Assembly: GCA_964467475.1 (NCBI GenBank)
Contig: CAYXQO010000008.1
Span: 490-64,489 of the forward strand
DNA: 64,000 nt
Direction of reading: 5' to 3'
From: an uncultured Syntrophomonadaceae bacterium
GTDB taxonomy: Bacteria > Bacillota > Dethiobacteria > DTU022
A program made the translations under genes and the position numbers. The notes beneath the pieces are model-generated. The model worked only from the letters and a program-made list of their open reading frames with translations, had not been told where the DNA came from and made no database searches. Positions 4,969 through 64,000 of the stretch are shown one piece after another (the first letter of the stretch is position 1; each line of letters begins with the position of its first letter).

Positions 4969-6870
4969 TTGACCTCCGGCGGCAACAATGAAAGGAAACA
5001 ACCAGATAAAAGAAATAGTCCTGGCTGTAGCCCGGAAGAGGAGCAAAGTGCTTGCGCAGAAGAAAAAGGTTCGTCAGCAGGTGAGGAGAACAACCCTGCA
5101 AAACGGCGAATGAAAGATCAATTGACCCTGGAGCAGCTGCAAGGTTTTTTTGAGGTGGCCCTGGATCTTTTGTGCATCGCTGATACAGACGGCAACTTTA
5201 TCAAGGTTAACCGGGCCTGGGGAGATATTCTGGGTTATCGGGCAGAAGAACTTGAAGAGAGAAAATTCCTCGAATTTGTGCACCCCGAGGACTATGATGC
5301 AACTATCGCGGTTATGTCCAAACTGGGAAAACAGGAGCTTGTCATAAATTTTACCAACCGCTACCGCGCTAAGGACGGCAGTTACCGCTATATTGAATGG
5401 CGTTCTCACCCTCACGGAAAACTAATCTATGCGGCAGCCAGGGATATCACCGAGCGTAAAACGACCGAAGATGCTTTGCGAGAAAGCGAAGCGCGCACCC
5501 GGGCGATGGTGGAAGCGATCCCTGATACGTTTTATCTTTTCAGCAAAGAAGGATGTTACCGCGATGTGCAGGTTAAAGATGACGCTTTGCTTCATCCTGC
5601 AGAGAGAGAAGCTTACCGGGCCGGGCAGTTGATTGGGCAAAACGTCGGTAGCTTGCTGCCACCGGAAATTTCCGGACTTTTGCTTGAAACAATTAACCGG
5701 GTTTTAACTGGTGGCGAACTGCAGGTGGTGGAATACAGCTTAACCGTTAACGGGAGCAAGAAACATTTCGAAGCGCGGATGGTCGCCACAAACGCAGATG
5801 AAGTGGTTTCTATCGTTCGCGATGTGACTGCGACCAGGGAAAGTGAGGCCGAACTTAAGTACTTAAGCCTGCATGATCCTTTGACCGGCCTTTATAACCG
5901 CGCCTATTTTGAAGATGAGTTGGTTCGTCTCGAGGATGGGAGGCAATACCCGGTGACGATTATTTCAGCTGATCTTGACGGATTAAAATTGATCAACGAT
6001 GTTTTGGGTCATAAAGATGGAGACAATCTTTTGCTATCCTGCGCCGGGGTGCTTAAGGAATCTTTGCGCAGCTCTGATGTGTTGGCCCGGGTGGGCGGGG
6101 ATGAGTTTGCGATAATCCTGCCCCGGACCGGCCGGGAAGAAGGGGAAAAAGTGATTGACCGGATCCGGCACCAGGTAGAGCAGTACAACCGGCTTTATTC
6201 GGCCCTGCCGCTTAGTATTTCCCTGGGGTTGGCAGTGGCTGAAAGTTCGTTGCAGCCCTTAGAAGAATTATATAGCGAGGCGGACCGGGGAATGTATAAA
6301 GATAAATTACAGCGCAGCCGTGATGCGCGCGATGAAATTGTGCGGGCCTTGTTGGCTTCGCTGTTTTTGCGTGAGGGCATGGGTGAAGCTCAAAACGAGC
6401 AGGTCCAGGAATTTTGCATTAAAATGGGACAAAAGGCAAAGCTTAGTGAAAATCAGCTGGCCGATTTGCACCTGCTTGCCCAGGTATATGATCTGGGTAA
6501 AGTCACCGTGGAAGAAGGTATCTTCTACAAAGAGGGCAAACTGACTGAAGCAGAGTGGGAAGAAATCAGGCAGCATTCAGAAAAAGGCTACCACATCGCT
6601 GCTGCTTCATCTGATTTGTCCGGGGTGGCAGACTTGATTCTCCGGCACCATGAAAACTGGGACGGTTCCGGCTATCCCCTGGGCTTGCAGGGAGAAGAGA
6701 TCCCGATTGAGTGCCGTATTTTAGCGGTAGTTGATGCTTATAATGCGATGGTTAATAAAAGAAGTTATGGTCCGGTTTTGAGCACCCTCGAGGCAATTCA
6801 AGAACTCGACCGCTGTGCTGGACGGCAGTTCGATCCCGCCATGGTTCCATTGCTTGCAGCCGTAGTTTAG
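4969..6870 (+). CDS. PAS-PAS-GGDEF-HD-GYP protein with degenerate HD motif
   Basis: PAS domains; RSSD plus RVGGDEF; VYDLGK instead of HD; HHENWDGSGYP. Confidence 0.92.
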   Translation: MTSGGNNERKQPDKRNSPGCSPEEEQSACAEEKGSSAGEENNPAKRRMKDQLTLEQLQGFFEVALDLLCIADTDGNFIKVNRAWGDILGYRAEELEERKFLEFVHPEDYDATIAVMSKLGKQELVINFTNRYRAKDGSYRYIEWRSHPHGKLIYAAARDITERKTTEDALRESEARTRAMVEAIPDTFYLFSKEGCYRDVQVKDDALLHPAEREAYRAGQLIGQNVGSLLPPEISGLLLETINRVLTGGELQVVEYSLTVNGSKKHFEARMVATNADEVVSIVRDVTATRESEAELKYLSLHDPLTGLYNRAYFEDELVRLEDGRQYPVTIISADLDGLKLINDVLGHKDGDNLLLSCAGVLKESLRSSDVLARVGGDEFAIILPRTGREEGEKVIDRIRHQVEQYNRLYSALPLSISLGLAVAESSLQPLEELYSEADRGMYKDKLQRSRDARDEIVRALLASLFLREGMGEAQNEQVQEFCIKMGQKAKLSENQLADLHLLAQVYDLGKVTVEEGIFYKEGKLTEAEWEEIRQHSEKGYHIAAASSDLSGVADLILRHHENWDGSGYPLGLQGEEIPIECRILAVVDAYNAMVNKRSYGPVLSTLEAIQELDRCAGRQFDPAMVPLLAAVV

Positions 6871-10653: not shown

Positions 10654-12870
10654 TTAATGTGCTTGTTTTTGCTGCTGCATGATAAAGGATAAGAAGACAT
10701 GGACCAGTTCGGGGTCGAACTGGGTCCCGGCATTTCTTTCTATCTCGGTCAGCGCTTCCTTGGAGTTTGCCGCTTTTTGGTAAGGCCGTTCGTGGGTCAT
10801 TACGTCATAGGCATCGCAGATGCTTAAAATCCGGCATTCTAAGGGGATTTCTGTACCTTTTAGTCCCAGGGGGTAGCCGTTGCCGTCCCAGTGCTCGTGG
10901 TGGCTCAAGATCAAGTTGGCGATCCCGGCTAAGTCGGAGGAAGAAGAAGCAATGCGGGATCCTTTTTCCGGGTGCAGCTTCATTATTTCCCACTCTTCTT
11001 CGGTTAGCGGGCCCGGCTTGTAGAGGATATGGTCGGGAATACCTACTTTGCCCAGGTCGTGTACCCGCACGAGCAGGGCCAGATCGGAAATTTGTTTTGA
11101 ATCAAGGCTTAATTTTTCTGCGAACTTCATGCACAGCTCTTCTAAGCGCTCAATGTGCCCCTCTGTGATATAGTCTCTTTCAGCAAGGGCTGCAGTGAGA
11201 CTCTGCACTACACCGTTGCGCGCGCTTTTACTGCGATGCAGCTTATCCCTGAACATCAAATCGTCGGCTTGTTTGACCAGTCTCTTAAGCGGGATGCTGT
11301 CTTTTTCCGCCGTAGCCACTCCCATAGAAACGCTCAAGGGCAGCTCGGGGTTATGGTTGTTGTAATGGGCTACCTGGTAGCGGATTTGCCGGGCCAGGCA
11401 TTCTCCTTCGGTTTTACCCGTAAGAGGGAGGATTGCTGTAAATTCATCGCCGCCGACCCGGCCTAAAACGCCGTTGTGATCAAAGGTTTCTTTCAAGATA
11501 TCGGCGCAGATTTTTAGCAGCCGGTCGCCCGCTTCGTGGCCGATCGTATCGTTGATTAGTTTGAGCCCATCAATATCGATGGAAATAATTGTGACCGGGT
11601 AACTGGGTTCTTCTGCTAAAAATTTCAACTTGGCTTCGAAGAAAGCTCGGTTGTAAAGACCGGTCAACTGATCGTGATAACTGAGATAGTATAGTTTTTC
11701 TTCACTGTAATCAAGGGCTTCTTCCGCGGTGGTTAGTTTTTTGAGCATGCTCTCCATTTCCTGGTTTGTTTTTTTTAGTTCCTTTTCGTTCTCCGTTAAC
11801 TGATAGAAATATTCCTGGGCTTTATCAAGCAAACTGTTGATTGTCTCGGTGAGAAGGGCCATTTCGTTGTTTTTCGGAGCAGGCAGGCGGTAAGAGAGAT
11901 CCCTGTCAACTTCAACTTTGCGCAAATTGTTTTCAAGCTGCAGCATGGGTTTGTGCACATGGATATGGTTGTAAGCCAAAAAGAGCAGGGCGATCAGCAA
12001 GGAGGCCGTGCCGGCAAATAAAAATTCGGCGGTCATTTTTTCCGAGCTTCCGGTAAAAACACTAAAAGGAATATAGGAGGCCATGTGCCAGCCGGTATCT
12101 TCGATCGGCAGGTAGGCCATGTAGCCGTTTTTTTCTGCCAGGTTTATGCGGGCAACCCCGTTTTCAATATTGTCAACCTTTTTTTCACCGTATTTTTCTT
12201 CAAAAGTAACCAGTTCGCCATGTGGGTTGTATCCCAGCTTCGGGTGGGCCAGCAAGTGTCCTTCTTTGTCGATTAGGAAAGAAAATTCGCCTTCTTCCAC
12301 TTCCCGAGCAGCTTCTGCGGTTTCAATCAGGTGGTTGATTTTATCAATGGGGATATCGCCACCGACAACGCCCAGGAATTCTTTGTCCGGACAGTACACC
12401 GGGTGGGCAATAGTAAAGATTACATCATCCCGGCTGGCGTTGATAAAAGCTTCGGTGAAAACGGTATCACCTTTTTCCCTGGCCTGGTTGTACCAGGGGC
12501 GTTCGCAAAGGTCGAAACCAGGGGGTGGTTCCCAGCCGCTGGCATTGATCATCTCGTTTTCGGGAGTGCCGAAATAGATCGAGTTGAACCCATCGTTATT
12601 TTCTAAGAGGGAACGCAAGTAGAGCAATATTTCCTCATCGTCCCACTGCTGTAGAGCAATGAAGTCTCCGGCTGCCTCGATGGTATGGGTATGTTTGTTC
12701 AGCCAGCCGTTAATTTCTTCGCTTTTGGAGTGGACAGAAAGCTCCGCCGCCTTACGGGCTTGTTCCTGCAAATGCTGGTTGGTCCCATGATACTGGTAGT
12801 ACCATCCACTAAAAAAGACAATTATTAGGATGAAGGCGAGAATGTATAAGTTCCTGACCAAACGCTGCAA
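10654..12870 (-). CDS. dCache-HAMP-GGDEF-HD-GYP membrane c-di-GMP enzyme
   Basis: TM, Cache (RPWYNQA...FTEAFINA), TM, HAMP, RVGGDEF, VHDLGK, HHEHWDGNGYP. Confidence 0.93.
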   Translation of the reverse strand: MQRLVRNLYILAFILIIVFFSGWYYQYHGTNQHLQEQARKAAELSVHSKSEEINGWLNKHTHTIEAAGDFIALQQWDDEEILLYLRSLLENNDGFNSIYFGTPENEMINASGWEPPPGFDLCERPWYNQAREKGDTVFTEAFINASRDDVIFTIAHPVYCPDKEFLGVVGGDIPIDKINHLIETAEAAREVEEGEFSFLIDKEGHLLAHPKLGYNPHGELVTFEEKYGEKKVDNIENGVARINLAEKNGYMAYLPIEDTGWHMASYIPFSVFTGSSEKMTAEFLFAGTASLLIALLFLAYNHIHVHKPMLQLENNLRKVEVDRDLSYRLPAPKNNEMALLTETINSLLDKAQEYFYQLTENEKELKKTNQEMESMLKKLTTAEEALDYSEEKLYYLSYHDQLTGLYNRAFFEAKLKFLAEEPSYPVTIISIDIDGLKLINDTIGHEAGDRLLKICADILKETFDHNGVLGRVGGDEFTAILPLTGKTEGECLARQIRYQVAHYNNHNPELPLSVSMGVATAEKDSIPLKRLVKQADDLMFRDKLHRSKSARNGVVQSLTAALAERDYITEGHIERLEELCMKFAEKLSLDSKQISDLALLVRVHDLGKVGIPDHILYKPGPLTEEEWEIMKLHPEKGSRIASSSSDLAGIANLILSHHEHWDGNGYPLGLKGTEIPLECRILSICDAYDVMTHERPYQKAANSKEALTEIERNAGTQFDPELVHVFLSFIMQQQKQAH

Positions 12871-52780: not shown

Positions 52781-52885
52781 AAACCTGGACGATAAAGGCA
52801 AACCTGTTGAAAAACAGGGGCGCAAAGCTAAAGGGTCTACGGCTCAACTAAAGAGCTAGGACAGCCTGGCTGCCGAAGCAGGGTT
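52781..52885 (+). promoter_or_regulatory. c-di-GMP-I (GEMM) riboswitch 1
   Basis: GGCAAACC-TGTT-GAAA-AACAGG-GG-CGCAAAGC...GCTGCCGA; G20 (52797), A47 and C92 (52873) equivalents present. Confidence 0.92.
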
Positions 52886-52962: not shown

Positions 52963-53058
52963 ACCTGACCGACAAAGGCAAACCTGTCGAAAGGCAGGGA
53001 CGCAAAGTTCAGGGTCTAAGGCTCAGTTTATGAGCTACGATAGCCTGACTGCCGAAAC
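52963..53058 (+). promoter_or_regulatory. c-di-GMP-I (GEMM) riboswitch 2 (tandem)
   Basis: GGCAAACC-TGTC-GAAA-GGCAGGG-ACGCAAAG...ACTGCCGA; G20 (52977) and C92 (53052) equivalents present. Confidence 0.93.
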
Positions 53059-53080
53059 TGGTTTTGTTTTACCTTTGTCG

Positions 53081-53106
53081 GTCCCTCATGAAGGAGGGAC
53101 TTTTTT
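53081..53106 (+). terminator. Riboswitch expression-platform terminator that also hides the SD
   Basis: GTCCCTC-ATGAAG-GAGGGAC-TTTTTT; AAGGAGG (53091-53097) lies in the loop and 3' arm; GTG start at 53107. Confidence 0.85.
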
Positions 53107-54336
53107 GTGACAAAAAATGATTTTTTATTAAATGGTAACTTCTTTTTTCCCGCAGTGTTTTCCGGTCTAGTTTCAGCCTGGAAGAACAAAGTCTATGTTT
53201 TCTTTGCCTCGCTGATCCTGCTTTTATTTTTAAGCATACCCGCCAGGGCGGCTGTGGAAGAATTTATTGTTAAGGCTGATGATGGTGTTTACAGCAAATT
53301 TTCTTATGAAGAGCTTCTAGACTCTTACGCCCTGAAGTTGATGGGCAAAGAAGGAGCGCTCTACGAAGAGTTTGCAGCAAAAGAGGTTGTCGCCCTTAAA
53401 ATATCCGGGCACGGCTATTTTGATTACAAAGATATTCTCGATTATTATGCCGGATCTTTAAGCAACGGCGATAAGTTTGATTTGCTACAGTATGCTGGTA
53501 ACGGTAATGCCAGGCAGGCCGAATTACCGGGGAATATTGAGACGGTTTCCCCCTCCGGTGGAGAAATCCCGGCCGGTGATGCAGGTCCAGAAGGTGATAT
53601 AAAAGAGGAAAAAGATGAGGAATTGGGGTTAGATGAAAGATCTGGTAATGAAAAAGAAAAGAATGATAATGACAAAGAGGAGGAACGGGAAGAAGAAAGC
53701 AGCCGGGATGAAGAATCTGATGATGAAGGAAGTAACGAAGAGAAAGAAAATAAAGAAGAGGAAATAGAAGAGGAGGAGAAAGAAGGGGAAGATAAAGAAG
53801 AAGAAAATAAAAATGAAGATGATTCGGAACCGGGATCATCCGGTGAAGAAACTCAGATCCTGGGGCAGGCTGAAGTCAGCTTGGATGAGGCTGTAAGCTG
53901 GGCCCAATCCAACAATGCTCATCAAAGATATGTAGATGCTGCCCCTTATTACTGGGAGTTTGGTGAAAAGACCGGGATTCGCCCGGAAGTACTTTATGCT
54001 CAGGCGGCGTACGAAACCGGGTTTGGGCGTTTTGGCGGAATTGTTCCGGCGGAGTACAATAACTGGGCAGGTATCAAAAAAGGCGGGGTTAATGGTGACG
54101 AGCCCGAAGACCATGAAGAATTTGCCTCTCCTGAAGACGGGGTCAGAGCTCATTTTAACCATATGGGTGCCTATGTCGGAATTTCTCCGGTTGGTGAAAC
54201 CCACGACCGCTATGACTCTGCTACCCGGATGTCCTGGGCCGGAAAGGTGGAAACAGTTGAGGATTTAAGCGGTAAGTGGGCCCCTTCTGATTCATACCAC
54301 GAACGCATTGTGGAGATGATTGACGAAATGAAATAA
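53107..54336 (+). CDS. Secreted glucosaminidase (GH73-like) with uncharacterised N-domain and acidic linker
   Basis: Signal peptide; E/K/D-rich linker; RPEVLYAQAAYETGFG...NNWAGIK...EDGVRAH. Confidence 0.85.
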   Translation: MTKNDFLLNGNFFFPAVFSGLVSAWKNKVYVFFASLILLLFLSIPARAAVEEFIVKADDGVYSKFSYEELLDSYALKLMGKEGALYEEFAAKEVVALKISGHGYFDYKDILDYYAGSLSNGDKFDLLQYAGNGNARQAELPGNIETVSPSGGEIPAGDAGPEGDIKEEKDEELGLDERSGNEKEKNDNDKEEEREEESSRDEESDDEGSNEEKENKEEEIEEEEKEGEDKEEENKNEDDSEPGSSGEETQILGQAEVSLDEAVSWAQSNNAHQRYVDAAPYYWEFGEKTGIRPEVLYAQAAYETGFGRFGGIVPAEYNNWAGIKKGGVNGDEPEDHEEFASPEDGVRAHFNHMGAYVGISPVGETHDRYDSATRMSWAGKVETVEDLSGKWAPSDSYHERIVEMIDEMK

Positions 54337-55370: not shown

Positions 55371-55473
55371 AACCTGACCGAGAAGGGCAAACCTGTTGAA
55401 AGGCAGAGGGCGCAAAGCTATAGGGCCTAAGGCTTTATCCAAAGCTAAGGCAGCCTGGCTGACGAAGCAGGTT
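55371..55473 (+). promoter_or_regulatory. c-di-GMP-I-class riboswitch 3 (variant: C92A and a 1-nt P2 insertion)
   Basis: GGGCAAACC-TGTT-GAAA-GGCAG-A-GGG-CGCAAAGCTATAGGGCC...GCTGACGA. Confidence 0.85.
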
Positions 55474-55523: not shown

Positions 55524-57092
55524 ATGAGCAGGGCGATGTGGCGTAAAAAAAAGCGCAGAAAAAAAATCAAACTTAATCCCACTATCTTGGTCGGCTTTGC
55601 CACCGTAGTGCTGGTTGCAACTGTACTGGCTCTGGTGTTAACGGACAGTTTTGGGGTAGCTTCTTCACTGCGCCAGGTATTTGCCACCAGCAGTGTAGAT
55701 ATGGTTGATGAAGACGGAACCGAAGTGATTGACGGGGACTATACCATAGATTCTCCCGGCGTGAGACTGGAAGATGTGCGTATTACAGGTGATTTGCATC
55801 TAGCTTCCGGTATTGGCGATGGGGAAGTGGATTTGGTCGACGTTACCGTGGAAGGAGCAGTCCTGGTCCAGGGTGGCGGGGTCAAATCTATTTTTATGCT
55901 CAACTGTGATTTTGCGGAAGTCAAGGTAAACAGGCCTGACGGGCGAGTGCGTTTGGTCGCCTCCGGTGAAACAATTATCGACCAGGTCAGCCTGGAGACA
56001 GGAACAAGAGTGGTGGAAAACCTTTCAGGTGGAACAGACGGCATCCGCTCTGTAGAGGTTAAGACCGATGAAAAAATTGAACTCGGCGGAGAATTTGAAA
56101 CGATTAAAGTAGCGGTGCAGGATGCCAAAGTAGTCATAGACAGTGAGAAAATAGAGCATTTGCGAGTAGACAGCAATGCTTCCGGATGCACTTTTGAATA
56201 TCCGGATGGTATGGTGATTGAGAATATGCGCCTTCAAGGAACTACTTATCTTTTTGGTCGCGCAGAAGTAAATCAGGCCCTTATTTCGGCTTCCGGGGTT
56301 TCGGAATTGGAAGGCAATTTCAACCAGCTCAGGGTGACCTCTGAAGCCGGTAAATTTGAATTGATCGAAGGGTCATATTTTAAAGAATTAGATGTAGCCA
56401 AGGATGCTCTGAACAATGTTTTCAGTGCAGGGGAAGATGTGATTATTGATTACCTGGTTTTAAACGAGGCTATCACCATGCAAGGTGCCGGCACGATTGA
56501 AAGTGTCCTGGTGAATGCTGCCGGTTCTACCCTGGAACAAATCCCTGAAGAAATCGAGTTTACCGGAGAAGTAAGTATAATTATTGACGGTCACGAGATA
56601 TCAAGCCCGGAAATGCTTAAAGCTTTGCTTGAACATGGTGATCCCCATTATACTACAGCGGATACCGCTGATGTGGGGATTGAAGAAAGCGAACCTGAAC
56701 CCGATCCCGAACCTGATCCGGAGCCTCCAGAAGAAGCGGAGTCGGAAGAAGAGCCTGAACCTGAAGTTGAATCAGACGATGAAGGTGTTGAAGAAGAGGA
56801 TAGCGATGTTGCTGCCGGCGGTGAAGGCGATGAAGAAAGGGAAACGATCCCAGACTTTGCATTAGACATTGTGATTCCGAGCCAGGAAGAAAGAGACCGG
56901 TTGTCGTTGCATGGTAAAAACTTGGTTTATATCTCTTTGCAAACTGACAACCCGGAAGAATATATAGTAGTGATACCGGGACTGGAAATAAGGTACTTAG
57001 AAGATGTGCAACTGTTTTACGGGGTAGTCGATGAAAGCGTGGAAGAAGCTGCTTTAAAAGAAGATCTTACTGTCCAAAGTAGGAATGAATAA
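55524..57092 (+). CDS. Membrane-anchored surface protein with S-layer-associated beta-solenoid-like domain and acidic Pro/Glu linker
   Basis: Basic N-terminus plus TM; GDYTI...GIGDGEVDL..VTVEG.V.V.GGG..SI repeats; EPEPDPEPDPEP tract. Confidence 0.72.
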   Translation: MSRAMWRKKKRRKKIKLNPTILVGFATVVLVATVLALVLTDSFGVASSLRQVFATSSVDMVDEDGTEVIDGDYTIDSPGVRLEDVRITGDLHLASGIGDGEVDLVDVTVEGAVLVQGGGVKSIFMLNCDFAEVKVNRPDGRVRLVASGETIIDQVSLETGTRVVENLSGGTDGIRSVEVKTDEKIELGGEFETIKVAVQDAKVVIDSEKIEHLRVDSNASGCTFEYPDGMVIENMRLQGTTYLFGRAEVNQALISASGVSELEGNFNQLRVTSEAGKFELIEGSYFKELDVAKDALNNVFSAGEDVIIDYLVLNEAITMQGAGTIESVLVNAAGSTLEQIPEEIEFTGEVSIIIDGHEISSPEMLKALLEHGDPHYTTADTADVGIEESEPEPDPEPDPEPPEEAESEEEPEPEVESDDEGVEEEDSDVAAGGEGDEERETIPDFALDIVIPSQEERDRLSLHGKNLVYISLQTDNPEEYIVVIPGLEIRYLEDVQLFYGVVDESVEEAALKEDLTVQSRNE

Positions 57093-57116
57093 AGCTGATT
57101 GACCGGAGGTGCGCCG

Positions 57117-58973
57117 GTGCTGGATTATTTGAAGAAAACAAGTCTGATTGTAACAGCGGTTTTAGCCCTGTTATTTTGGGTTGCCTCACCCGTGGAAGCT
57201 GCCGTGAAAGCATTTGTCGTTACAAACGACCAGGGCAGTTATTATGAATACAACTACGAAGATCTACTTGATGCCTATGCTTTGAAACTCGTAGGTGATT
57301 CAAATGGTTTTTACGAGGATTATGCTGAGAAAGAATTGTATGCCCTGGTTAATCATGACGGAGAACATATTGATTACAAGGATGTGCTTGATCGTTATGC
57401 CGAAGCGATTGCCTTAGGAGAGAGGTTTGATTTAGAAGAATATATTACCGGTGATCAAGCCAAGAAACTTGAGATTTCTAAAGAAATCAATTCTATAACC
57501 CCGGACTCCGACAAAGTGGCAACTTCCGGGGGAGCCTCTACCATCAGCAATCCCGGAATGGACTTAGGAGATTTGTTGGCGGAGTTTGATCCCCCGGGTT
57601 CGCGATCACCGATTGTCGGTGCGGCAGGTGTCATGGAAGAACAGGCGATGAAATGGGCAGAGGAAAATAATGCGGCAGAGGAATTGCTAGAGCTTGTCCC
57701 GCTTTACTGGGAGTACTCCGAAAAAACTGGGATGCGGCCGGAAGTGCTTTTTGCTCAGGCCGCCCTGGAAACTAACCTGGGCCATTACAGCGATGAAGTT
57801 CCTTCTGACCGGCATAACTATGCCGGGATTTTAAAAGGTGACGCTAAAGAAGACGATCCGGAAAACTATGAAAAATTTGAAGATCCCGAAGAAGGTGTTC
57901 GGGCCCACTATAATCATATGGCCGCTTATACGGGATTAAGCCCGATCGGCGATACCCACGACCGTTATAACGTGGCTGCTGCACAGTCCTGGTCCGGCTC
58001 TGTAATCTATGTCGAGGATTTAAGTGAAAGGTGGTCGCCTTCTGAGGACTATCACCTGTATATCCTGGCCGTTATGGAACAGATAGCAAATACCGAGGTG
58101 GAAAGCCTGAAAGAGGAAGAGCCCGAAGATCCGGAAGATCCCGAAAGAGAGATACCTGAGAAGGACCGGGAAGAAAAAATCGAAGATCTTGAAGACAGGG
58201 AACACGTTGCTGTCGATGTTGCCGATATAACCGTTCTTAATTTGAGAAGTGGGCCGAGCACCGATTACGAAGTTTTAGACCGTTTGGTTAGAGGTACTGT
58301 GCTTGAAGTTACCGCCAATGAGGGAATATGGTTAGAGGTGATTACCCCGGATGATAAAGAAGGCTGGGTCCACGGTGACTATGTCAGGCCGGTTGACTTA
58401 TCGGAAAACCCCTTTGAAGGCAACTACATCATTCTTGATCCTGGACACGGCGGGGCTGATCCAGGGGCTGTCGGGGAAAGCGGACTGATGGAAAAAGAAG
58501 TTACTCTGGCTGTGGCCACTTACCTGGAAGAAATGCTCATTGAAGCCGGGGCCAGGGTGAAAATGACCAGGAGCGGCGATCAAACTGTCAGCAACAGTAA
58601 AAGGGTTGAGCTGGCCAATGAAGAAAATGCCGATGTTTTCGTCAGTATTCATGCCAACGCTTACAGCGATCCCGAGTCAAACGGTATAGAAACCTATTAT
58701 TGCTCCAACAGCGATGAGGGTGATGCCGGTAAATTCCTGGCCCAGCAGCTGCAGCGCGAAATGATTTCCGCGCTCGGTTTAAGAGACCGCGGGGTAAAAA
58801 CTAGGAGCTTCATGGTCTTGAAGGAAACAAAAATGCCCTCGGCCTTAGTGGAAATCGGGTTTGTGTCGAACCCTGATGAAGAAGCGATGCTGGAAAAAGA
58901 AGAAACCAGGGAAAAAGCGGCAGAATCGCTCTTTTACGGGCTTGAAACTTACCTGCGTAAGTTCAGGGAGTAA
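57117..58973 (+). CDS. Bifunctional autolysin: N-domain + glucosaminidase + SH3b + N-acetylmuramoyl-L-alanine amidase (Amidase_3)
   Basis: AQAALET; LNLRSGPSTDY...GWVHGDYV (SH3b); ILDPGHGG, EKEV, SIHAN, VEIGF. Confidence 0.92.
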   Translation: MLDYLKKTSLIVTAVLALLFWVASPVEAAVKAFVVTNDQGSYYEYNYEDLLDAYALKLVGDSNGFYEDYAEKELYALVNHDGEHIDYKDVLDRYAEAIALGERFDLEEYITGDQAKKLEISKEINSITPDSDKVATSGGASTISNPGMDLGDLLAEFDPPGSRSPIVGAAGVMEEQAMKWAEENNAAEELLELVPLYWEYSEKTGMRPEVLFAQAALETNLGHYSDEVPSDRHNYAGILKGDAKEDDPENYEKFEDPEEGVRAHYNHMAAYTGLSPIGDTHDRYNVAAAQSWSGSVIYVEDLSERWSPSEDYHLYILAVMEQIANTEVESLKEEEPEDPEDPEREIPEKDREEKIEDLEDREHVAVDVADITVLNLRSGPSTDYEVLDRLVRGTVLEVTANEGIWLEVITPDDKEGWVHGDYVRPVDLSENPFEGNYIILDPGHGGADPGAVGESGLMEKEVTLAVATYLEEMLIEAGARVKMTRSGDQTVSNSKRVELANEENADVFVSIHANAYSDPESNGIETYYCSNSDEGDAGKFLAQQLQREMISALGLRDRGVKTRSFMVLKETKMPSALVEIGFVSNPDEEAMLEKEETREKAAESLFYGLETYLRKFRE

Positions 58974-59131
58974 TAGGAGATTGTGGATTTATTCGGCAAC
59001 ATATGACAATTTTAGAAACGTAAAGTTAAGTAACCAGTAAAAATAAGTAAAAAAAACTTGATTTATAAGAATTGAAGGTATAAACTTGGATTATACAGGA
59101 ACCAGAATAGAAAAAATTTTACACGAAAAGA

Positions 59132-59156
59132 AGGATATATTATTTTGAAAGAGAAT
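59132..59156 (+). promoter_or_regulatory. sigmaH-type promoter upstream of the cohesin/dockerin cluster
   Basis: AGGA-17-GAAT. Confidence 0.5.
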
Positions 59157-59358
59157 AGGATAAAGGAGAAATTTTTTAAAATAAGGAAAGGTGTCTTTAT
59201 TTGTAGTTTTGATAAGAGTATTTCTTTTCATGGTATATTACTTTGAATAATGGAGGTGAATCAGGATAATAAAAAAGTTATCTGAAATATGTGCTTGCAT
59301 GGTGAAATGCTAGAGAGAGAAATAAGCACAAGATTATTTTTTAAAGGGAGAGAATAAA

Positions 59359-60024
59359 ATGTTAGGACCAATTAAAAACGGAACCTTATTTTGTGTTATT
59401 TTGGTTTTTGTTCTGATGTTTTCCGTGTTTACGGCCCAGGATGTACAGGCCAATGATTCGGAGGAAGGTAAGGATGCTGCGATCCGAGCCGCGGTTGAAG
59501 CTATTAAAGACATCCGCCGTTCACCGGATCGTATTGTGTCTTTAAACCAACGCGCTGTCGATGATGTAGCGAGGGCAAGATCCCTGGTGGAAGAAGCTAA
59601 AGATGAGTATGGTGTTAACGAAGAGGATATTGCCAATATAGATACCTTAAGGGAGTCTGAGAAGCGAGTAGATAAGCTTTTGGCTGTTGAAGAAGCCAAA
59701 GAAGCAATGGATGAACTCCCACCCCCCTCAGAAGCAACTGCAGCAGATAAACCTGCCATAGAAAGAGCCCGTGAACTTGTTAATATAGCTAAAGAGGATT
59801 ACGGTGCGAGCCGTTTTGATTTATGCTGGGGTCTCGATCGGTTGGAGGAAATAGAGGAGAAAGTGGATCCCGATCCCGACCCTGATCCAGAGTTGCCTCC
59901 CACAGGCGGGTTGACCACTTCAGTTATATCAGGCCTGGTACTAACAGGGGCTGGTTTGCTGTTCGTTGGCAAAAGGTATGGAAGAAATAAGCATAAAAGA
60001 TACAGTAAAAGGACCTACAGGTAA
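59359..60024 (+). CDS. Sortase-anchored protein with two ~65-aa helical repeats
   Basis: Signal peptide; repeats A..EA..A...LP...D...V..AR.LV..AK..YG; DPDPDPE-LPPTG-TM-basic tail. Confidence 0.85.
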   Translation: MLGPIKNGTLFCVILVFVLMFSVFTAQDVQANDSEEGKDAAIRAAVEAIKDIRRSPDRIVSLNQRAVDDVARARSLVEEAKDEYGVNEEDIANIDTLRESEKRVDKLLAVEEAKEAMDELPPPSEATAADKPAIERARELVNIAKEDYGASRFDLCWGLDRLEEIEEKVDPDPDPDPELPPTGGLTTSVISGLVLTGAGLLFVGKRYGRNKHKRYSKRTYR

Positions 60025-60128
60025 AAATTAATAAGGGGTTACTGCTATTCTAGAAGGAGAAATAAAGGAGGGTAGTTTGAAACCTCATTAAGATCGGATA
60101 TTTTGAAAAATAAAGGGGTGTACTGAAA

Positions 60129-61136
60129 ATGAAGTGCTTACAAAAGAAAAAACCATTGTTGGTAACGCTGGCTTTAAGCGTAGCTTTGCTGATGGCCTTT
60201 TCGTTGGCTGCTTTTGCTTCCGATGGAGTCAAGTTAGGCGTCAGTGATGAGTCGGGGGATGTTGGTGATGAGGTTACTGTTGAAATAACAGCTGAAAATG
60301 CACTCGATCATGAAGGTGGTCAGTTTGACCTTTCCTTCGATGATGATGTTGTCGAGCCAGTATCCGCATCAAGAGGAGCAATGGTACCCGATATATCGGG
60401 TAACCTTTTTGACTACAACCTTGAGCTGGAAGATGGCAAGCTGAGAATAATGTGGGTTATTGCTGAAGGTGCTGAAGAAGATTCCGGAGTGATTGGAACA
60501 ATTGACTTTGAAATCCTTGAAGAAGGGGAAACGGATTTAACCTTCAGCAACATTGTCTTTTCTCCTGAGGGTGTAGAAGCAGCTGATCCCAGCGCTGGAA
60601 GCATTGTTTATGAAGAACCGGTAGATGAAAAGCAACAGGCAATCGATGAGGCAAATGAAGCAATTGCTGCGCTTCCTGCCGTAGAAGACATTACTCTTGC
60701 CGACAAGGAGGATGTTGAAAACGCTCGCGACCTTGTGAACAAGGCCAAAGAACTGGGTGCGGTAGATGATGACTTTGATGAGCTGAGTAAGTTGGAAGAT
60801 GCCGAAGAGAAAATTGTCAAGTTAGAGGCAATTAAGGAAGCAGACGATGCTATCTTAGCCCTGCCGCACGTTGATGTCTTGACTCTTGATGACAAGCCAG
60901 ATGTGGAAGCAGCCCGGGCCCTGGTCAACAGGGCGAAGGAAGATTATGGGGCGGTAGATGAGGATTTTGAGTATCTGTCCACCCTGGAAGCCTGCGAAAA
61001 CAGGATCAAGGAACTGGAAGGGGAAGTGCCCACCCCGCCGACCGGTGATTTGAACTACCTGCTGCCACTGGGGTTGCTGGTTGTGCTGGCCGGGCTCTTG
61101 TTTTACATCAAGCGCAGTAAGGCAGCAGTTAAGTAA
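60129..61136 (+). CDS. Cell-wall-anchored cohesin protein (cohesin + 2 helical repeats + TPPTG sorting signal)
   Basis: GDVGDEVTVEI...GGQFDLSFD...G...GKLRIMW...SGVIGTIDFEI cohesin pattern; TPPTG-TM-KR tail. Confidence 0.82.
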   Translation: MKCLQKKKPLLVTLALSVALLMAFSLAAFASDGVKLGVSDESGDVGDEVTVEITAENALDHEGGQFDLSFDDDVVEPVSASRGAMVPDISGNLFDYNLELEDGKLRIMWVIAEGAEEDSGVIGTIDFEILEEGETDLTFSNIVFSPEGVEAADPSAGSIVYEEPVDEKQQAIDEANEAIAALPAVEDITLADKEDVENARDLVNKAKELGAVDDDFDELSKLEDAEEKIVKLEAIKEADDAILALPHVDVLTLDDKPDVEAARALVNRAKEDYGAVDEDFEYLSTLEACENRIKELEGEVPTPPTGDLNYLLPLGLLVVLAGLLFYIKRSKAAVK

Positions 61137-61253
61137 AAAGATAAAAAATAAATAATTAAAAGTAGTGATGCGGCGGTGATAAATCGGTCGCCGTCGCATC
61201 AACTTAAATATGGTTTTACTTATTAATAATAAATAAAGGATGTTAATGCAGTA

Positions 61254-61934
61254 ATGATCACTTTACTAAAAGTAAATATCAAAAAGGTGTTGCTTATAAC
61301 AGCTGCTTTGACCTTGGCTCTTTCTTTTAAAGGGGATGTATATGCTGGTGAGGGGTTAAAGCTTACAGCAACTGAAGATGAAGGAAAACCTGGTGAGCAG
61401 GTTGTGATTGAAATAAATGCAGAAAACGCTGCAGGGACAGAAGGTGGACAGTTCTTGCTTAACTTTGACCAGGACTTGCTTGATCCAGTAGCCGCTGATT
61501 CCGGTCAGCTTGTTGAGGATGCGGAAAGCAACTTGTTTATGGTGAATAAAGAATATGGCGAAGGTCAGCTAAAATTCATGTGGGTTACTGCCCTGGCAGA
61601 TACCGCAGATTCTGGAACTGTTTGCGAGATAACCTTTGATTTGCTTGGTGAAGGCACCACAGCCCTTGAATTTACAGAGATCGTAGTCTCTCCAGATGAT
61701 TTTACTGTAGCCGAGGCAGTTTCGGGGAAGGTAAGAATTGACGATGCGGGGGTGGATAAGGAGGAAAATGAAGAACCTGAACAACCTGAAGAAGATAACA
61801 GGGAAGAAGAGGTGGCTGCCGCTGAAGCAGAAACTAATGGTACAGCGCTGGTTATAGGACTGATTGTTGTAGCAGCGCTGGCAGCAGTCGGTTATGTGGC
61901 TTTCCGGAAATTCAAAAAGTCCGCAAAATATTAG
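61254..61934 (+). CDS. Membrane-anchored single-cohesin protein
   Basis: GKPGEQVVIEI...GGQFLLNFD...GQLKFMW...SGTVCEITFD; acidic linker; C-terminal TM plus RKFKK. Confidence 0.82.
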   Translation: MITLLKVNIKKVLLITAALTLALSFKGDVYAGEGLKLTATEDEGKPGEQVVIEINAENAAGTEGGQFLLNFDQDLLDPVAADSGQLVEDAESNLFMVNKEYGEGQLKFMWVTALADTADSGTVCEITFDLLGEGTTALEFTEIVVSPDDFTVAEAVSGKVRIDDAGVDKEENEEPEQPEEDNREEEVAAAEAETNGTALVIGLIVVAALAAVGYVAFRKFKKSAKY

Positions 61935-62044
61935 AGATAAATAAACTTAAACCAGGGAGAAGTAAAGATTAATTGTATTTAATTGTTTGAATGCATTTTA
62001 CCTGTTTTTTGTAATCACTTAATAATGAAAGTGAGGTTATTAAA

Positions 62045-64000
62045 ATGCCGAAATCTACAAGAAAGAGAGCAGGGGCAAAAACATCTATCGTTTTGCTTTC
62101 CATCTTTCTTTTCCTAATTATATTCTCTCCGGCCGTTTTTGCCGAAACCGGTAAACTTGGGGATATTAACGACGATGGGGAAGTTGATGTGCGTGACGTA
62201 GTCCTGGTTATGCGGCACGTGCTGGTATTGGAAGAGTTAGATGAAGACCAGCAAAGACGAGCAGATGTTGATGGTGACGGAGAAATCGATGTTCGCGACG
62301 CCACTTTAATTATGCAGTATGCGCTGGGGATTATCGACGAATTCCCCTATGATTTACCAGAAGTAGTTAGCGTAAGAGCAATTGATCGTTCCACCATTGA
62401 AGTAGAGCTATCTGAAGACGTAGCCGAAGAAGCAGCTGAAGATCCCGACTATTACCAGGTAACCGTAGGCAATGAATCGGTGGAAGTAGAAGATGTTGAT
62501 TATGATGCTGATGACAGAATCGCGGAGCTTGAAGTCGATCTGGAAGGCAAGTCCGGAGTTCTTGTGGTAAATGGAGTAGAAGCAGAAGAAAAAGTCCCGC
62601 CAATTCCAGATTTTACTGAAATTTCGGCGCTTGAAGCTGCTTTGGAAGTGGTGATGTACTTTAATACTCCTATTTATGCAGATGATGACTTAGATCCTGG
62701 CGATGATATTATCCTGAAGGTTGCCGGCGATGATGTTGGAGACAACTTCGAGGTTGAAATCCCTGACGAAAAAGATGATGCGGAAGACGAAGTTATCTTA
62801 AAGATAACTGATACTGATTACAGGCCTGAAGCCAATGATTCAGTCCGTGTAGAACTTGACATTGATGGAGCGGAAAAAATCTTCAATGTTTGGGATGAGC
62901 CCATGGAACAGCCCAGGGTTTATATAACTACTGCTACACCTGATGATGAAAATCCACGTTTCGAAGAAATACTTGCCTTTGAGGAAAGTAATTTTGTTGT
63001 AGCATATTTTTCCAAACCAGTTAATACTTCCGGTGACGATATTAATGTCGGCCCGGCTAGAGAAGAAGTTAGAGTCACCGGGGAAGATGCAGACGGCACC
63101 CCGCTTGAATACGATGGAGATAAAATACATGCTTTATCGCGGGATGAGGAACAAGAAGGGCTTAGAATCGAGCTAGATGATGCAATCCCGGAAGGCTCAG
63201 AAATAACGGTTAGTTTTGGCACCGACGCGGGAAGGAAAATTAAAGATCGCGCCGGTAATACCCTTGCAGGCACTTACACCAGGTCCGCAACAGCAGTAGA
63301 AGGTCCTACCCTGGAAGATGCAGAAGTCACAAATCTCAGCTTTGACATAGACGATCAAACCCAGGAATTCTCGGTGAAGCTTGTAGGAGCCATGGATGAA
63401 GGGCAAGAGCTTACCATCGATTTAACCGAAGCTGCAGGAGAAGGAATAGATTACCATCCGTTTAATACTCGCTATGAGGTTGATGGAGCTGATGGTGATG
63501 TTTCCTTCGATGATGATGTAATCACATTTGAAGCAGAAGAAAATATCGATGACGGAACTGTACTTACAATAACAGCAGAAGAAATCGACACTACTGGTAT
63601 TGGTGATGTTGTAGAAGATATCGAAGTAGTCTTTGAACGCTCAGAAGTAGGAGCTACTATTGTCGCTGAATTCGACGTGGTGGCCGGCCTTGGCGATTTA
63701 GCTATAGATGCTATGTACGAATTAAAATCGCCTGCCGATGATGTATACGAAGAAGTGGACTTGCTTGCTTCCGGCCAGGATGACCATACGGTGGAATTTA
63801 CCTTCACCTTGAAAGGCACCCTCGAGGAAGATGAGTATGTGGAAATTGATGTAAGCGAGCTCGTAGATGCTGGAGTAACCTTTGATGAGGAAGCAATTGA
63901 ATGGGACAACAACGACCTGGATGTAGAGTTAGATAACGATACGTTTACTATTACCGCTGAAGATGATGATATCGATACCGGAACAGAAATAACAGTTACC
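62045..64000 (+). CDS. Large acidic surface/S-layer-like protein with N-terminal dockerin (3' end outside window)
   Basis: Open frame of 652 codons from ATG 62045 (not in ORF track); signal peptide AVFA; LGDINDDGEVDVRD...ADVDGDGEIDVRD dockerin; Ig-like beta-rich D/E-rich repeats. Confidence 0.9.
   Translation, partial: MPKSTRKRAGAKTSIVLLSIFLFLIIFSPAVFAETGKLGDINDDGEVDVRDVVLVMRHVLVLEELDEDQQRRADVDGDGEIDVRDATLIMQYALGIIDEFPYDLPEVVSVRAIDRSTIEVELSEDVAEEAAEDPDYYQVTVGNESVEVEDVDYDADDRIAELEVDLEGKSGVLVVNGVEAEEKVPPIPDFTEISALEAALEVVMYFNTPIYADDDLDPGDDIILKVAGDDVGDNFEVEIPDEKDDAEDEVILKITDTDYRPEANDSVRVELDIDGAEKIFNVWDEPMEQPRVYITTATPDDENPRFEEILAFEESNFVVAYFSKPVNTSGDDINVGPAREEVRVTGEDADGTPLEYDGDKIHALSRDEEQEGLRIELDDAIPEGSEITVSFGTDAGRKIKDRAGNTLAGTYTRSATAVEGPTLEDAEVTNLSFDIDDQTQEFSVKLVGAMDEGQELTIDLTEAAGEGIDYHPFNTRYEVDGADGDVSFDDDVITFEAEENIDDGTVLTITAEEIDTTGIGDVVEDIEVVFERSEVGATIVAEFDVVAGLGDLAIDAMYELKSPADDVYEEVDLLASGQDDHTVEFTFTLKGTLEEDEYVEIDVSELVDAGVTFDEEAIEWDNNDLDVELDNDTFTITAEDDDIDTGTEITVT

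Follow-up and report, generated by a model that had tools for sequence, protein, structure and literature searches.

To our knowledge, cohesin-dockerin pairs outside cellulosomes are common in genomes, hardly any of them have been characterised, and what they are for is an open question. The ligands docked by the Ruminococcus flavefaciens single-cohesin protein ScaE include the non-enzymatic adhesion protein CttA, which binds through its dockerin. ScaE is attached to the wall by sortase and not through an SLH domain (PMC11557425), sortase-anchored single-cohesin scaffoldins are described from Ruminococcus (PMC11557425, PMC4611034), and single cohesins with C-terminal membrane helices are found in the non-cellulolytic Lachnoclostridium sp. 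MSJ-17 (PMC11557425). Peer et al. (2009), as cited in PMC13487519, place non-cellulosomal cohesins and dockerins mostly on non-catalytic proteins. The SLH-anchored Clostridium thermocellum proteins OlpA and OlpC present single type I cohesins at the surface and directly dock proteins with type I dockerins. In Clostridioides difficile the CWB2 module recurs in the S-layer protein, in adhesins, in a papain-type protease that has a lectin-like domain, and in wall hydrolases, with functional domains that vary greatly (PMC4973711, PMC5842191). Here we compare with these systems a gene cluster at positions 59,359 to 64,000 of a 64,000-nucleotide stretch of DNA (hereafter the window; contig CAYXQO010000008.1, positions 490 to 64,489) from an uncultured Syntrophomonadaceae bacterium, in which genes for two cohesin proteins are directly followed by genes for proteins with N-terminal dockerins.

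We propose, with a probability of about 70%, that the products of this locus keep proteins on the surface of a non-cellulolytic, haloalkaliphilic Firmicute by means of cohesin-dockerin contacts, in the role that SLH and CWB2 modules have elsewhere. A previous description made from the letters of the window without database searches (the sequence-only reading) had proposed a non-cellulosomal cohesin-dockerin surface assembly encoded by four co-oriented genes. The open reading frame (ORF) listing with translation confirmed that all four (g1 to g4) lie on the + strand, and the assembly itself is supported by domain assignments, AlphaFold2 (AF2) models searched with Foldseek, and synteny in about 19 species. 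An exact-protein look-up with g3 retrieved 14 contigs, one of which (L001) differs from the window at 2 of the 12,747 bases that they share and extends the locus: g5, a fifth gene encoding a second dockerin protein, stands just beyond the window end, and the cluster ends after it at an asparagine synthase gene on the opposite strand.

We scanned one genome per GTDB species using an alignment of g2 orthologues as a query, yielding a full g2 relative in 19 species-level metagenome-assembled genomes (MAGs) and one additional weak match that shares the helical repeat only. Nearly all MAGs with the cassette are titled “Syntrophomonadaceae bacterium” or “Bacillota bacterium”, and many come from soda-lake sediments of the Kulunda steppe. 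The gene order was the same in every locus long enough to judge, among the 19 species-level MAGs and 14 metagenome contigs: a PK_C gene on the minus strand, a cyclic di-GMP (c-di-GMP) riboswitch of class I, u500, a glucosaminidase-SH3-amidase gene, a gap of ~400 bp, g1, g2, g3, and one to three genes with N-terminal dockerins. The Dethiobacter-related group holding these MAGs (class Dethiobacteria in GTDB; PMC10608574) accounts for 5-20% of soda-lake sediment communities, carries the Wood-Ljungdahl pathway, includes syntrophic acetate oxidisers and lives by syntrophic acetate or fatty-acid metabolism (PMC6146748, PMC6295475). Cellulolysis is not among the traits described for it in these two papers, and cellulose went unmentioned in a text search of the metagenome survey. 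Short cassette contigs were also retrieved from a MAG titled Bacteroidetes bacterium (L011, 100% identical to the window) and from a Desulfonatronospira sp. MAG (L012), both of which probably reflect binning contamination of public MAGs.

Across nine species, the mean pairwise identity was 61% for g2, 59% for the dockerin, 54% for the amidase, 49% for u500, 48% for g1, 39% for g3 (linker included) and 12% for the cargo after the dockerin (range 0.8-58%). Anchors and dockerins are conserved at ~60% identity, whereas the cargo (~12%) is swapped between species for other non-enzymatic beta-sandwich proteins. Despite this replacement, the cohesin genes were directly followed by dockerin genes in all of the >30 loci. 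The dockerin stands at the N-terminus of all in-locus ligands and is the sole element common to all downstream genes, which is the strongest sequence-based argument that it is the partner of the adjacent cohesins. Hidden Markov models built from the family detected no further cohesin or dockerin elsewhere in the window, nor less than 10 kb from any locus.

The first anchor gene, g2 (60129..61136, + strand), encodes a 335-aa protein made up of a signal peptide, a type-I-like cohesin (60231-60611), a rod in the form of a double three-helix bundle (60627-61016), a TPPTG sorting signal (61032-61046), a hydrophobic stretch and a basic tail, which matches the cohesin, repeats and TPPTG that had been read from the sequence. 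The Pfam Cohesin profile (PF00963) covers aa 35-158 (E 3e-13, 50.5 bits, cut-off 24.1), and the TPPTG sorting signal was present in 21/21 orthologues. The AF2 model, built with 9 sequences, reached a mean predicted local distance difference test score (pLDDT) of 83.9 and comprises a cohesin beta-sandwich at aa 35-161 followed by helices at aa 167-180, 190-208, 219-243, 253-273 and 283-296. In this model the helical region of ~130 residues is a rigid rod (pLDDT ~94-97 in 10-residue blocks) in which the continuous helix at aa 219-243 joins two three-helix bundles, with the sorting signal directly after it.

Using Foldseek, with template modelling (TM) scores normalised to the target, the best match of the g2 model was the non-cellulosomal Archaeoglobus fulgidus cohesin 2xdh (TM 0.80), followed by type I cohesins at 0.72-0.77, with types II and III at 0.53-0.63; as modelled, the g2 cohesin resembles type I more than it does types II and III. 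By sequence these cohesins are remote from solved ones (E ~1e-5), and a search of 1.8 billion representative proteins returned ~8 full-length g2-like clusters. Like ScaE (2zf9 among the Foldseek matches), g2 is a single-cohesin protein with a signal for sortase attachment to the wall. However, ScaE has a type III cohesin, a type to which the g2 model scores 0.58-0.59 as opposed to 0.72-0.80 for type I and A. fulgidus, and it works within a cellulolytic system with C-terminal X-dockerins, while the dockerins here are N-terminal, without X module and without cellulases. The present locus also adds a second, membrane-anchored cohesin and a cohesin-less rod protein. OlpA and OlpC resemble g2 and g3 as single type I cohesins at the surface (3ul4 and 4dh2 among the Foldseek matches) and, together with the SLH-anchored S-layers, in retaining proteins non-covalently; they differ in that no SLH domain is present here, the anchors are a sortase-type signal and a membrane helix, and the ligands are structural proteins instead of cellulases.

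The second anchor gene, g3 (61254..61934, + strand), encodes 226 aa with a signal peptide, a cohesin (61359-61733; PF00963 at aa 36-149, E 3e-11, 43.9 bits, cut-off 24.1), an acidic low-complexity linker and a C-terminal membrane helix (61845-61904) identified as a hydrophobic stretch with a basic tail. The helix and tail are kept in 19 orthologues, none of which (0/19) carries PPTG, in line with the membrane-anchored cohesin of the sequence-only reading. Similar short proteins combining a cohesin and a membrane helix form ~40 clusters among the 1.8 billion representative proteins. Between the cohesins of g2 and g3 the identity is ~35-45%, as compared to 50-71% among g2 and 39-53% among g3 orthologues; on this basis we consider the anchors to be old paralogues with separately conserved roles. 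The compact cohesins of A. fulgidus and Lachnoclostridium, also found outside cellulosomes, include in the latter a precedent for a g3-like membrane-anchored single cohesin. There, however, the genes are scattered and of unknown function, whereas here a conserved 5-6-gene operon holds both partners and two anchors, has conserved RNA elements for its regulation and always the same hydrolase neighbour, and is complemented by a set of ligands found across the lineage.

Upstream of both, g1 (59359..60024, + strand) encodes a 221-aa protein with a signal peptide, two three-helix repeats (aa ~38-165), a PD-rich linker, LPPTG at 59893-59907 (aa 179-183, read from the translation), a hydrophobic stretch and a basic tail, the two repeats and LPPTG being as had been described. 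It has no Pfam match and no cohesin, and its sequence retrieved nothing meaningful from the PDB. It shares 38% identity with the last 200 residues of g2 and so amounts to g2 minus the cohesin. The sorting signal, defined as [LT]PPTG with ~20 hydrophobic residues and a K/R-rich tail, was found in 19/19 g1 orthologues. The three-helix repeat of g1 and g2 (~60 residues), which no Pfam family covers, recurs in 6-16 copies in giant wall proteins (P0147-P0176, up to 5315 aa) with SLH, CWB2 or choline-binding anchors, so that we regard it as a common spacer of surface proteins. In one related species (L023), a third cohesin gene at 1265-1969 lies between g1 and g2; its product continues from the cohesin into a PD-repeat linker and TPPTG and lacks the helical rod.

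The ligand gene g4 (62045..64000, + strand, cut by the window end) shows 652 aa in the window, with a signal peptide, an N-terminal type I dockerin (62156-62347) and ~7 beta-sandwich domains. Completed from L001, the protein is 810 aa long. Right behind the signal peptide, the Pfam Dockerin_1 profile (PF00404) matches aa 38-92 with E 2e-11 and 44 bits (cut-off 22.9), and neither SLH nor any other anchor was found over the full length, including the part that had been out of view when the protein was called very acidic and SLH-free. The protein has no cysteine. Its acidity (D+E 27.7%) was discarded as a special feature: other exported proteins of the organism are also acidic (D+E 21-23.5%), so that g4 is only the top of a general trend. 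The AF2 model, built with 12 homologues (pLDDT 84.6), places the dockerin with two helix pairs, including helices at aa 49-59 and 83-93 after the calcium loops, in front of the ~7 beta-sandwich domains, the protein being all-beta after aa 106. The 617-aa g5 protein combines an N-terminal dockerin (51 bits, cut-off 22.9) with Big_4, InlB-type B-repeat and BslA-like domains (the last with 43.5 bits, cut-off 38.7).

Both calcium loops of the g4 dockerin, DINDDGEVDVRD and DVDGDGEIDVRD, carry V-R at positions 10/11, as had been noted, and the g5 dockerin is likewise V-R/V-R. The symmetry from which dual-mode binding had been suggested is real in these two proteins; however, only 9/25 dockerins of the family have identical residues at 10/11 in both loops, which does not show dual-mode binding to be a conserved feature. 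The F-hand calcium loops (DxNxDGxIxxxD) are conserved in most of 27 aligned dockerins, with 3 having a degenerate first or second loop.

Behind the dockerin, the in-locus cargo proteins belong to at least four unrelated families in combinations that differ per species: g4-like proteins (with a fasciclin domain in two g4 homologues), fn3/Ig_Rha78A-rich proteins, Big_5/CopC-like proteins, g5-like proteins (Big_4, InlB B-repeat, BslA-like) and smaller Big_6 proteins. No catalytic domain was detected in any of them, and neither of the known S-layer anchoring modules, SLH and CWB2, was detected in g4, g5 or the other cargo. This sets them apart from the ligands of the Ruminococcus bromii amylosome, which are GH13 amylases; the amylosome is otherwise similar in using cohesin-dockerin contacts beyond cellulose in a Firmicute, with sortase-linked scaffoldins (PMC4611034).

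To look for the same dockerin type elsewhere, we ran protein homologue searches, in which a 72-aa dockerin query returned no match and the dockerin alignment returned only short fragments without cargo. A metagenome scan with the dockerin alignment yielded 30 loci at a dockerin identity of 52-100%. Most of them came from the same soda-lake samples, and 16/30 were not beside cohesins. The out-of-locus dockerins of this type (52-65% identity) are carried by trypsin-like proteases with Big_2 and a C-terminal dockerin (e.g. L045 4510-6192), a serpin (L056 3264-4691), a metallo-beta-lactamase-fold protein with a ComEA-like HHH_3 domain (L053 337-1716), a CHAP wall hydrolase (L060 5038-6180), an SH3_3 protein, a PrcB_C protein and two small dockerin-only proteins; the contigs L056, L053, L060 and L045 come from soda-lake or similar metagenomes. 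A separate homologue search added a NamZ-type protein. Another carrier is a Cwp84-like cysteine protease with papain and lectin-like domains (L052 1946-4750; PDB 4ci7, E 1.6e-33), which has a C-terminal dockerin in place of the CWB2 repeats, adjoins another gene with an N-terminal dockerin and lies on a contig with a tetranucleotide correlation of r 0.82 to the window. The tetranucleotide correlation with the window was r 0.82-0.93 for six out-of-locus contigs, 0.80-0.94 for bona fide relatives and 0.10-0.64 for unrelated dockerin contigs.

Because this dockerin type is also found on proteases, a serpin and wall hydrolases from genes outside the locus, the cohesins look like a general docking platform and not a dedicated anchor of one coat protein, and the dockerin appears to fill the part that SLH and CWB2 have in other Firmicutes. 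The arrangement is comparable to the CWB2 family of C. difficile (SlpA, Cwp84, Cwp66, CwpV) in that one anchoring module is shared by diverse surface proteins, including a Cwp84-like protease. It differs in that CWB2 binds the wall polymer PSII directly, whereas here the socket would be a protein, the cohesin, fixed by a sortase signal or a membrane helix, with no CWB2.

The mechanism that we propose starts from two sockets, the monovalent, compact, type-I-like cohesins of g2 and g3. Sortase would link g2 covalently to peptidoglycan at TPPTG, leaving its cohesin at the tip of the rigid rod, roughly 10 nm from the anchoring point, while g3 would stay in the membrane through its C-terminal helix, with the cohesin on a flexible acidic tether of 35-80 residues. 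The two kinds of anchor that had been proposed are both present, one with a sortase-type signal and a rigid helical rod, the other with a membrane helix and a flexible acidic linker, and from the modelled anatomy it is reasonable to suppose that they hold ligands at two heights above the membrane. The protein g1, a rod with a sorting signal and no socket, may be a spacer. The plugs would be secreted proteins with a calcium-binding type I dockerin that folds with calcium on leaving the Sec channel and is then captured. As the dockerin is usually at the very N-terminus, it would exit the channel first, and this position would let the membrane-proximal g3 catch in-locus ligands before g2. The main ligands would be g4, g5 and their counterparts, large, acidic, non-enzymatic beta-sandwich chains that may form the outermost protein coat or an adhesin layer, and minor ligands (proteases, serpin, wall enzymes) would share the same sockets.

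Several points weigh against this proposal. Binding of the g2 and g3 cohesins to these dockerins is predicted from sequence, and some species carry two clearly different dockerin subtypes, which bears on which cohesin pairs with which dockerin. On the side of the anchors, NCBIfam LPXTG-type models scored the g1 and g2 sorting signals below their cut-offs (EF0750_LPXTG 16-17 bits, cut-off 47), and no sortase domain or TLxTC motif was found in the window or in loci L001-L030; the linker of g3 may not be long enough to span a thick wall, and the proposal gives g1 no more than a putative role as a spacer. As for the wider ligand set, the only links of the out-of-locus contigs to the lineage are the similarity of their dockerins, the samples that they come from and their tetranucleotide composition, and L047, L048, L053 and L056 fit the tetranucleotide signature of the window less well.

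What the retained cargo does can be read in more than one way. A tentative but quite possible view is that g4 and its counterparts serve as exchangeable fibrillar adhesins, or as proteins of a biofilm coat, for holding on to minerals, partner cells or one another, and are deployed along with c-di-GMP-controlled wall remodelling. They are beads-on-a-string beta-sandwich chains with fasciclin (in the two g4 homologues), InlB B-repeat, SpaA-like, Big_x and BslA-like domains, which are typical of adhesins and biofilm coat proteins, and the staphylococcal adhesins SdrD and FnBPA are among the Foldseek matches of the g4 model. The cassette always adjoins operons with c-di-GMP riboswitches, and the window holds three GGDEF/HD-GYP genes; however, the riboswitch governs the operon next to the cassette, without demonstrable control of the cohesin genes. 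In g4, no ligand-binding tip domain could be recognised. A cultured member of the class makes dense colonies and biofilm on magnetite (PMC10608574), whereas cultures of Ca. Syntrophonatronum showed no physical association with partner cells (PMC6295475).

The sequence-only reading had taken the cargo for an S-layer or surface coat, and the structural comparison did not single out an S-layer. Foldseek against the PDB gave generic multi-Ig matches for g4 (integrins, contactins, mastigonemes), with the S-layer protein SbsC (4uic, 4uj6) at rank 26 (E 1e-8, TM 0.15-0.16), below integrins and contactins; being matched in this generic way, the g4 fold does not separate S-layer from adhesin. That the in-locus cargo is a true paracrystalline S-layer, its subunits held by cohesin-dockerin contacts instead of SLH or CWB2, would be a special case of the retention system proposed here and seems to us rather unlikely. 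The 810-aa, acidic, cysteine-free, all-beta and non-enzymatic g4, the presence of SbsC among the matches, and the lack of SLH and CWB2 in the window and cargo are compatible with it. S-layer genes typically join a conserved anchoring module to outer domains that are replaced rapidly, and the present cargo fits that pattern. The long conserved leader and the Shine-Dalgarno-like elements described below would suit stable, abundant mRNAs, and this dockerin type is carried by a Cwp84-like protease; in C. difficile, maturation of the S-layer precursor is the work of Cwp84 (PMC5842191). Against it, the one to three different cargo genes per locus, from at least four unrelated families, look more like an adhesin repertoire, the conserved hairpin in the g2-g3 spacer could reduce the expression of what lies beyond the anchors, and many other ligands would compete for the same sockets.

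At its broadest, the idea would take in the whole non-covalently bound surface proteome, dockerin-attached to the two cohesin sockets (one sortase-linked, one in the membrane) and including a genuine S-layer-like coat, its maturing Cwp84-like protease, other proteases, the serpin and the wall hydrolases, with each dockerin caught by the membrane cohesin and passed to the wall cohesin, and the coat remodelled together with the c-di-GMP-controlled autolysins. We consider this version unlikely; if true, cohesin-dockerin would be a third general wall-anchoring principle beside SLH and CWB2.

It is very improbable that the locus is the anchoring part of a cryptic cellulosome-like or polysaccharide-degrading complex with dockerin enzymes encoded elsewhere: the cohesin and dockerin families are those of cellulosomes and dockerin-tagged enzymes do exist outside the locus (proteases, CHAP, NamZ), but none of the ~40 proteins with this dockerin type that we examined (~20 of them out-of-locus) carries a cellulolytic domain, a plant-polysaccharide glycoside hydrolase (GH) or a carbohydrate-binding module (CBM), the lineage is described by the Wood-Ljungdahl pathway and syntrophic metabolism, and the survey text does not mention cellulose (PMC6146748, PMC6295475). 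The anchors themselves depart from the cellulosome plan in having one cohesin each in g2 and g3, where PMC13487519 defines a scaffoldin by two or more. Dockerins on plant-wall GHs and a scaffoldin CBM were absent from the window, the in-locus cargo and the ~20 out-of-locus proteins; within the window, as the sequence-only reading had noted, a Pfam scan of the 55 ORFs of at least 150 aa showed no CBM or plant-polysaccharide GH, nor any SLH or sortase. Equally hard to credit is that the cohesins and dockerins of the cluster are not partners, each binding something else (wall polymers, proteins of other organisms) and lying side by side for shared regulation only: other organisms with a single cohesin have been proposed to scavenge dockerin proteins of foreign origin (PMC11557425), but here dockerin genes directly follow the cohesin genes in every one of the >30 loci although the cargo is replaced, and the dockerin is all that the downstream genes have in common.

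For the retention system that we favour, several features are new. A conserved operon unites both partners, and a sortase-type anchor is paired with a membrane anchor and accompanied by a rod protein that lacks a cohesin. The dockerins stand uniformly at the N-terminus of structural cargo that is interchangeable, and a non-cellulolytic set of dockerin proteins, a Cwp84-like protease among them, extends across the lineage. The operon also has a fixed partnership with riboswitch-controlled autolysins and holds conserved RNA elements. With both partners in one operon, two defined anchors, non-enzymatic main ligands and >19 natural variants, the locus is an unusually clean case in which the purpose of non-cellulosomal cohesin-dockerin pairs, a long-standing question, can be put to a direct test, and cohesin-dockerin anchoring of fast-changing, non-enzymatic coat or adhesin proteins is a little-explored anchoring route. 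If the predicted binding is true, cohesin-dockerin would serve general surface retention in Gram-positives of high pH and high salinity, possibly as the anchor of a surface coat, and the lineage would be a source of calcium-dependent, salt- and alkali-tolerant cohesin-dockerin pairs for protein display. The proposal, if true, would also tie the envelope organisation of a dominant soda-lake syntroph lineage to c-di-GMP signalling.

The amidase-g1 gap (58974-59358, ~400 bp) is conserved in an alignment of 13 species and contains a series of elements, all on the + strand. Upstream of g1, a promoter-like TTGATT-N17-TAAACT (59058..59086), to which a promoter function is assigned from the consensus alone, is conserved in the 13 aligned species and is followed by a nearly invariant AT-rich block (AACCAGAATAGAAAAA..ACACG..AAAAGAAGGAT, 59100..59136) without Rfam match, which could be an operator or part of a leader RNA. 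An invariant Shine-Dalgarno-like GGAGGTGA (59252..59259, 13 species) has no start codon or conserved ORF after it, for which reason we rejected a leader peptide at this position; it may instead act as a STAB-SD-like mRNA stabiliser. About 25 nt 5' of the g1 ribosome-binding site, a conserved hairpin with a 6-bp stem (59291..59329) has 97.4% of cells paired and compensatory changes in 5/6 pairs, and 0/500 shuffles reach the observed value. Taken as a whole, the leader may represent a new cis-regulatory RNA or serve to stabilise the mRNA.

The spacers of the cassette hold further elements on the + strand: a Shine-Dalgarno-like hairpin between g1 and g2 (AAAGGAGGGTAG...CCTC, 60064..60086, conserved in 13 species), a GC-rich hairpin without U tract between g2 and g3 (GCGGCGG..CCGCCGC, 61167..61200), present in 10/11 aligned species and not seen in L028, whose extracted gap is short, and a conserved motif with GGGAG before g4 (AACCAGGGAGAA, 61950..61961). 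An AACCAG... motif shared by the leader and the g3-g4 spacer was discarded, as it is no commoner than chance in the window. The spacer elements between g1, g2, g3 and g4 may set mRNA stability or subunit ratios, and we infer that g1-g4 form a transcription unit of their own with built-in control of one or the other.

Directly 5' of the cassette, a glucosaminidase-SH3-Amidase_3 peptidoglycan hydrolase (57099..58973, + strand; Pfam Amidase_3 E 1e-57, SH3_3, Glucosaminidase) is the partner of u500 (55524..57092, + strand), a membrane-anchored protein encoded by the first gene of the operon, syntenic in all long loci and always paired with the amidase gene. It has no Pfam match; its residues 63-119 match chain A of ChiW (5gzt_A, E 1.6e-8), the CBM54-type beta-helix of a surface chitinase, and residues 129-259 weakly match chain B (5gzt_B, E 0.026). 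A c-di-GMP-I riboswitch precedes this operon (55376..55466, + strand; Rfam 66.1 bits, gathering score 35) and was found at the same place in 9/10 related loci. Farther upstream, a tandem pair of aptamers on the + strand (Rfam 69 and 84 bits), c-di-GMP-I-GGC (52788-52878) followed by canonical c-di-GMP-I (52967-53056), and a terminator-like hairpin (53080-53101) stand before a glucosaminidase gene (53107-54336). Their order is reversed in L014, and other relatives keep one only.

The adjacency to c-di-GMP-controlled autolysins, as it had been put in the sequence-only reading, holds in so far as the riboswitch precedes the neighbouring hydrolase operon. It does not show control of the cohesin genes, which have their own promoter-like element and no riboswitch match: an aptamer lies in the 5' leader of the hydrolase genes and not in that of the cassette g1-g5, and a permissive Rfam search (E <= 1) of cassette and leader gave no riboswitch or other family, only chance-level matches. 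We infer that the c-di-GMP link to the cohesin genes consists of conserved adjacency, possibly with read-through, rather than direct control. Minimum-free-energy folds of the riboswitches left ON versus OFF logic ambiguous.

The rest of the window is ordinary chromosome, with dnaK/grpE/dnaJ, clpB and transporters. Three sensor genes on the minus strand (3146-4933, 4969-6870 and 10654-12870) combine GGDEF and HD-GYP domains with PAS or dCache inputs, so that genes of c-di-GMP turnover are dense in the same 64 kb as the three c-di-GMP riboswitches. The two hydrolases at 53107-54336 and 57099-58973 share an N-terminal domain of ~110 residues (36-50% identity across relatives), for which there is no Pfam model and which may be a targeting domain. 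In two related loci, c-di-GMP-II riboswitches (L010 744-826, L021 2537-2620) precede other large secreted proteins directly 5' of the hydrolase/cohesin region, and a group II intron fragment is located at 416-495 of L022.

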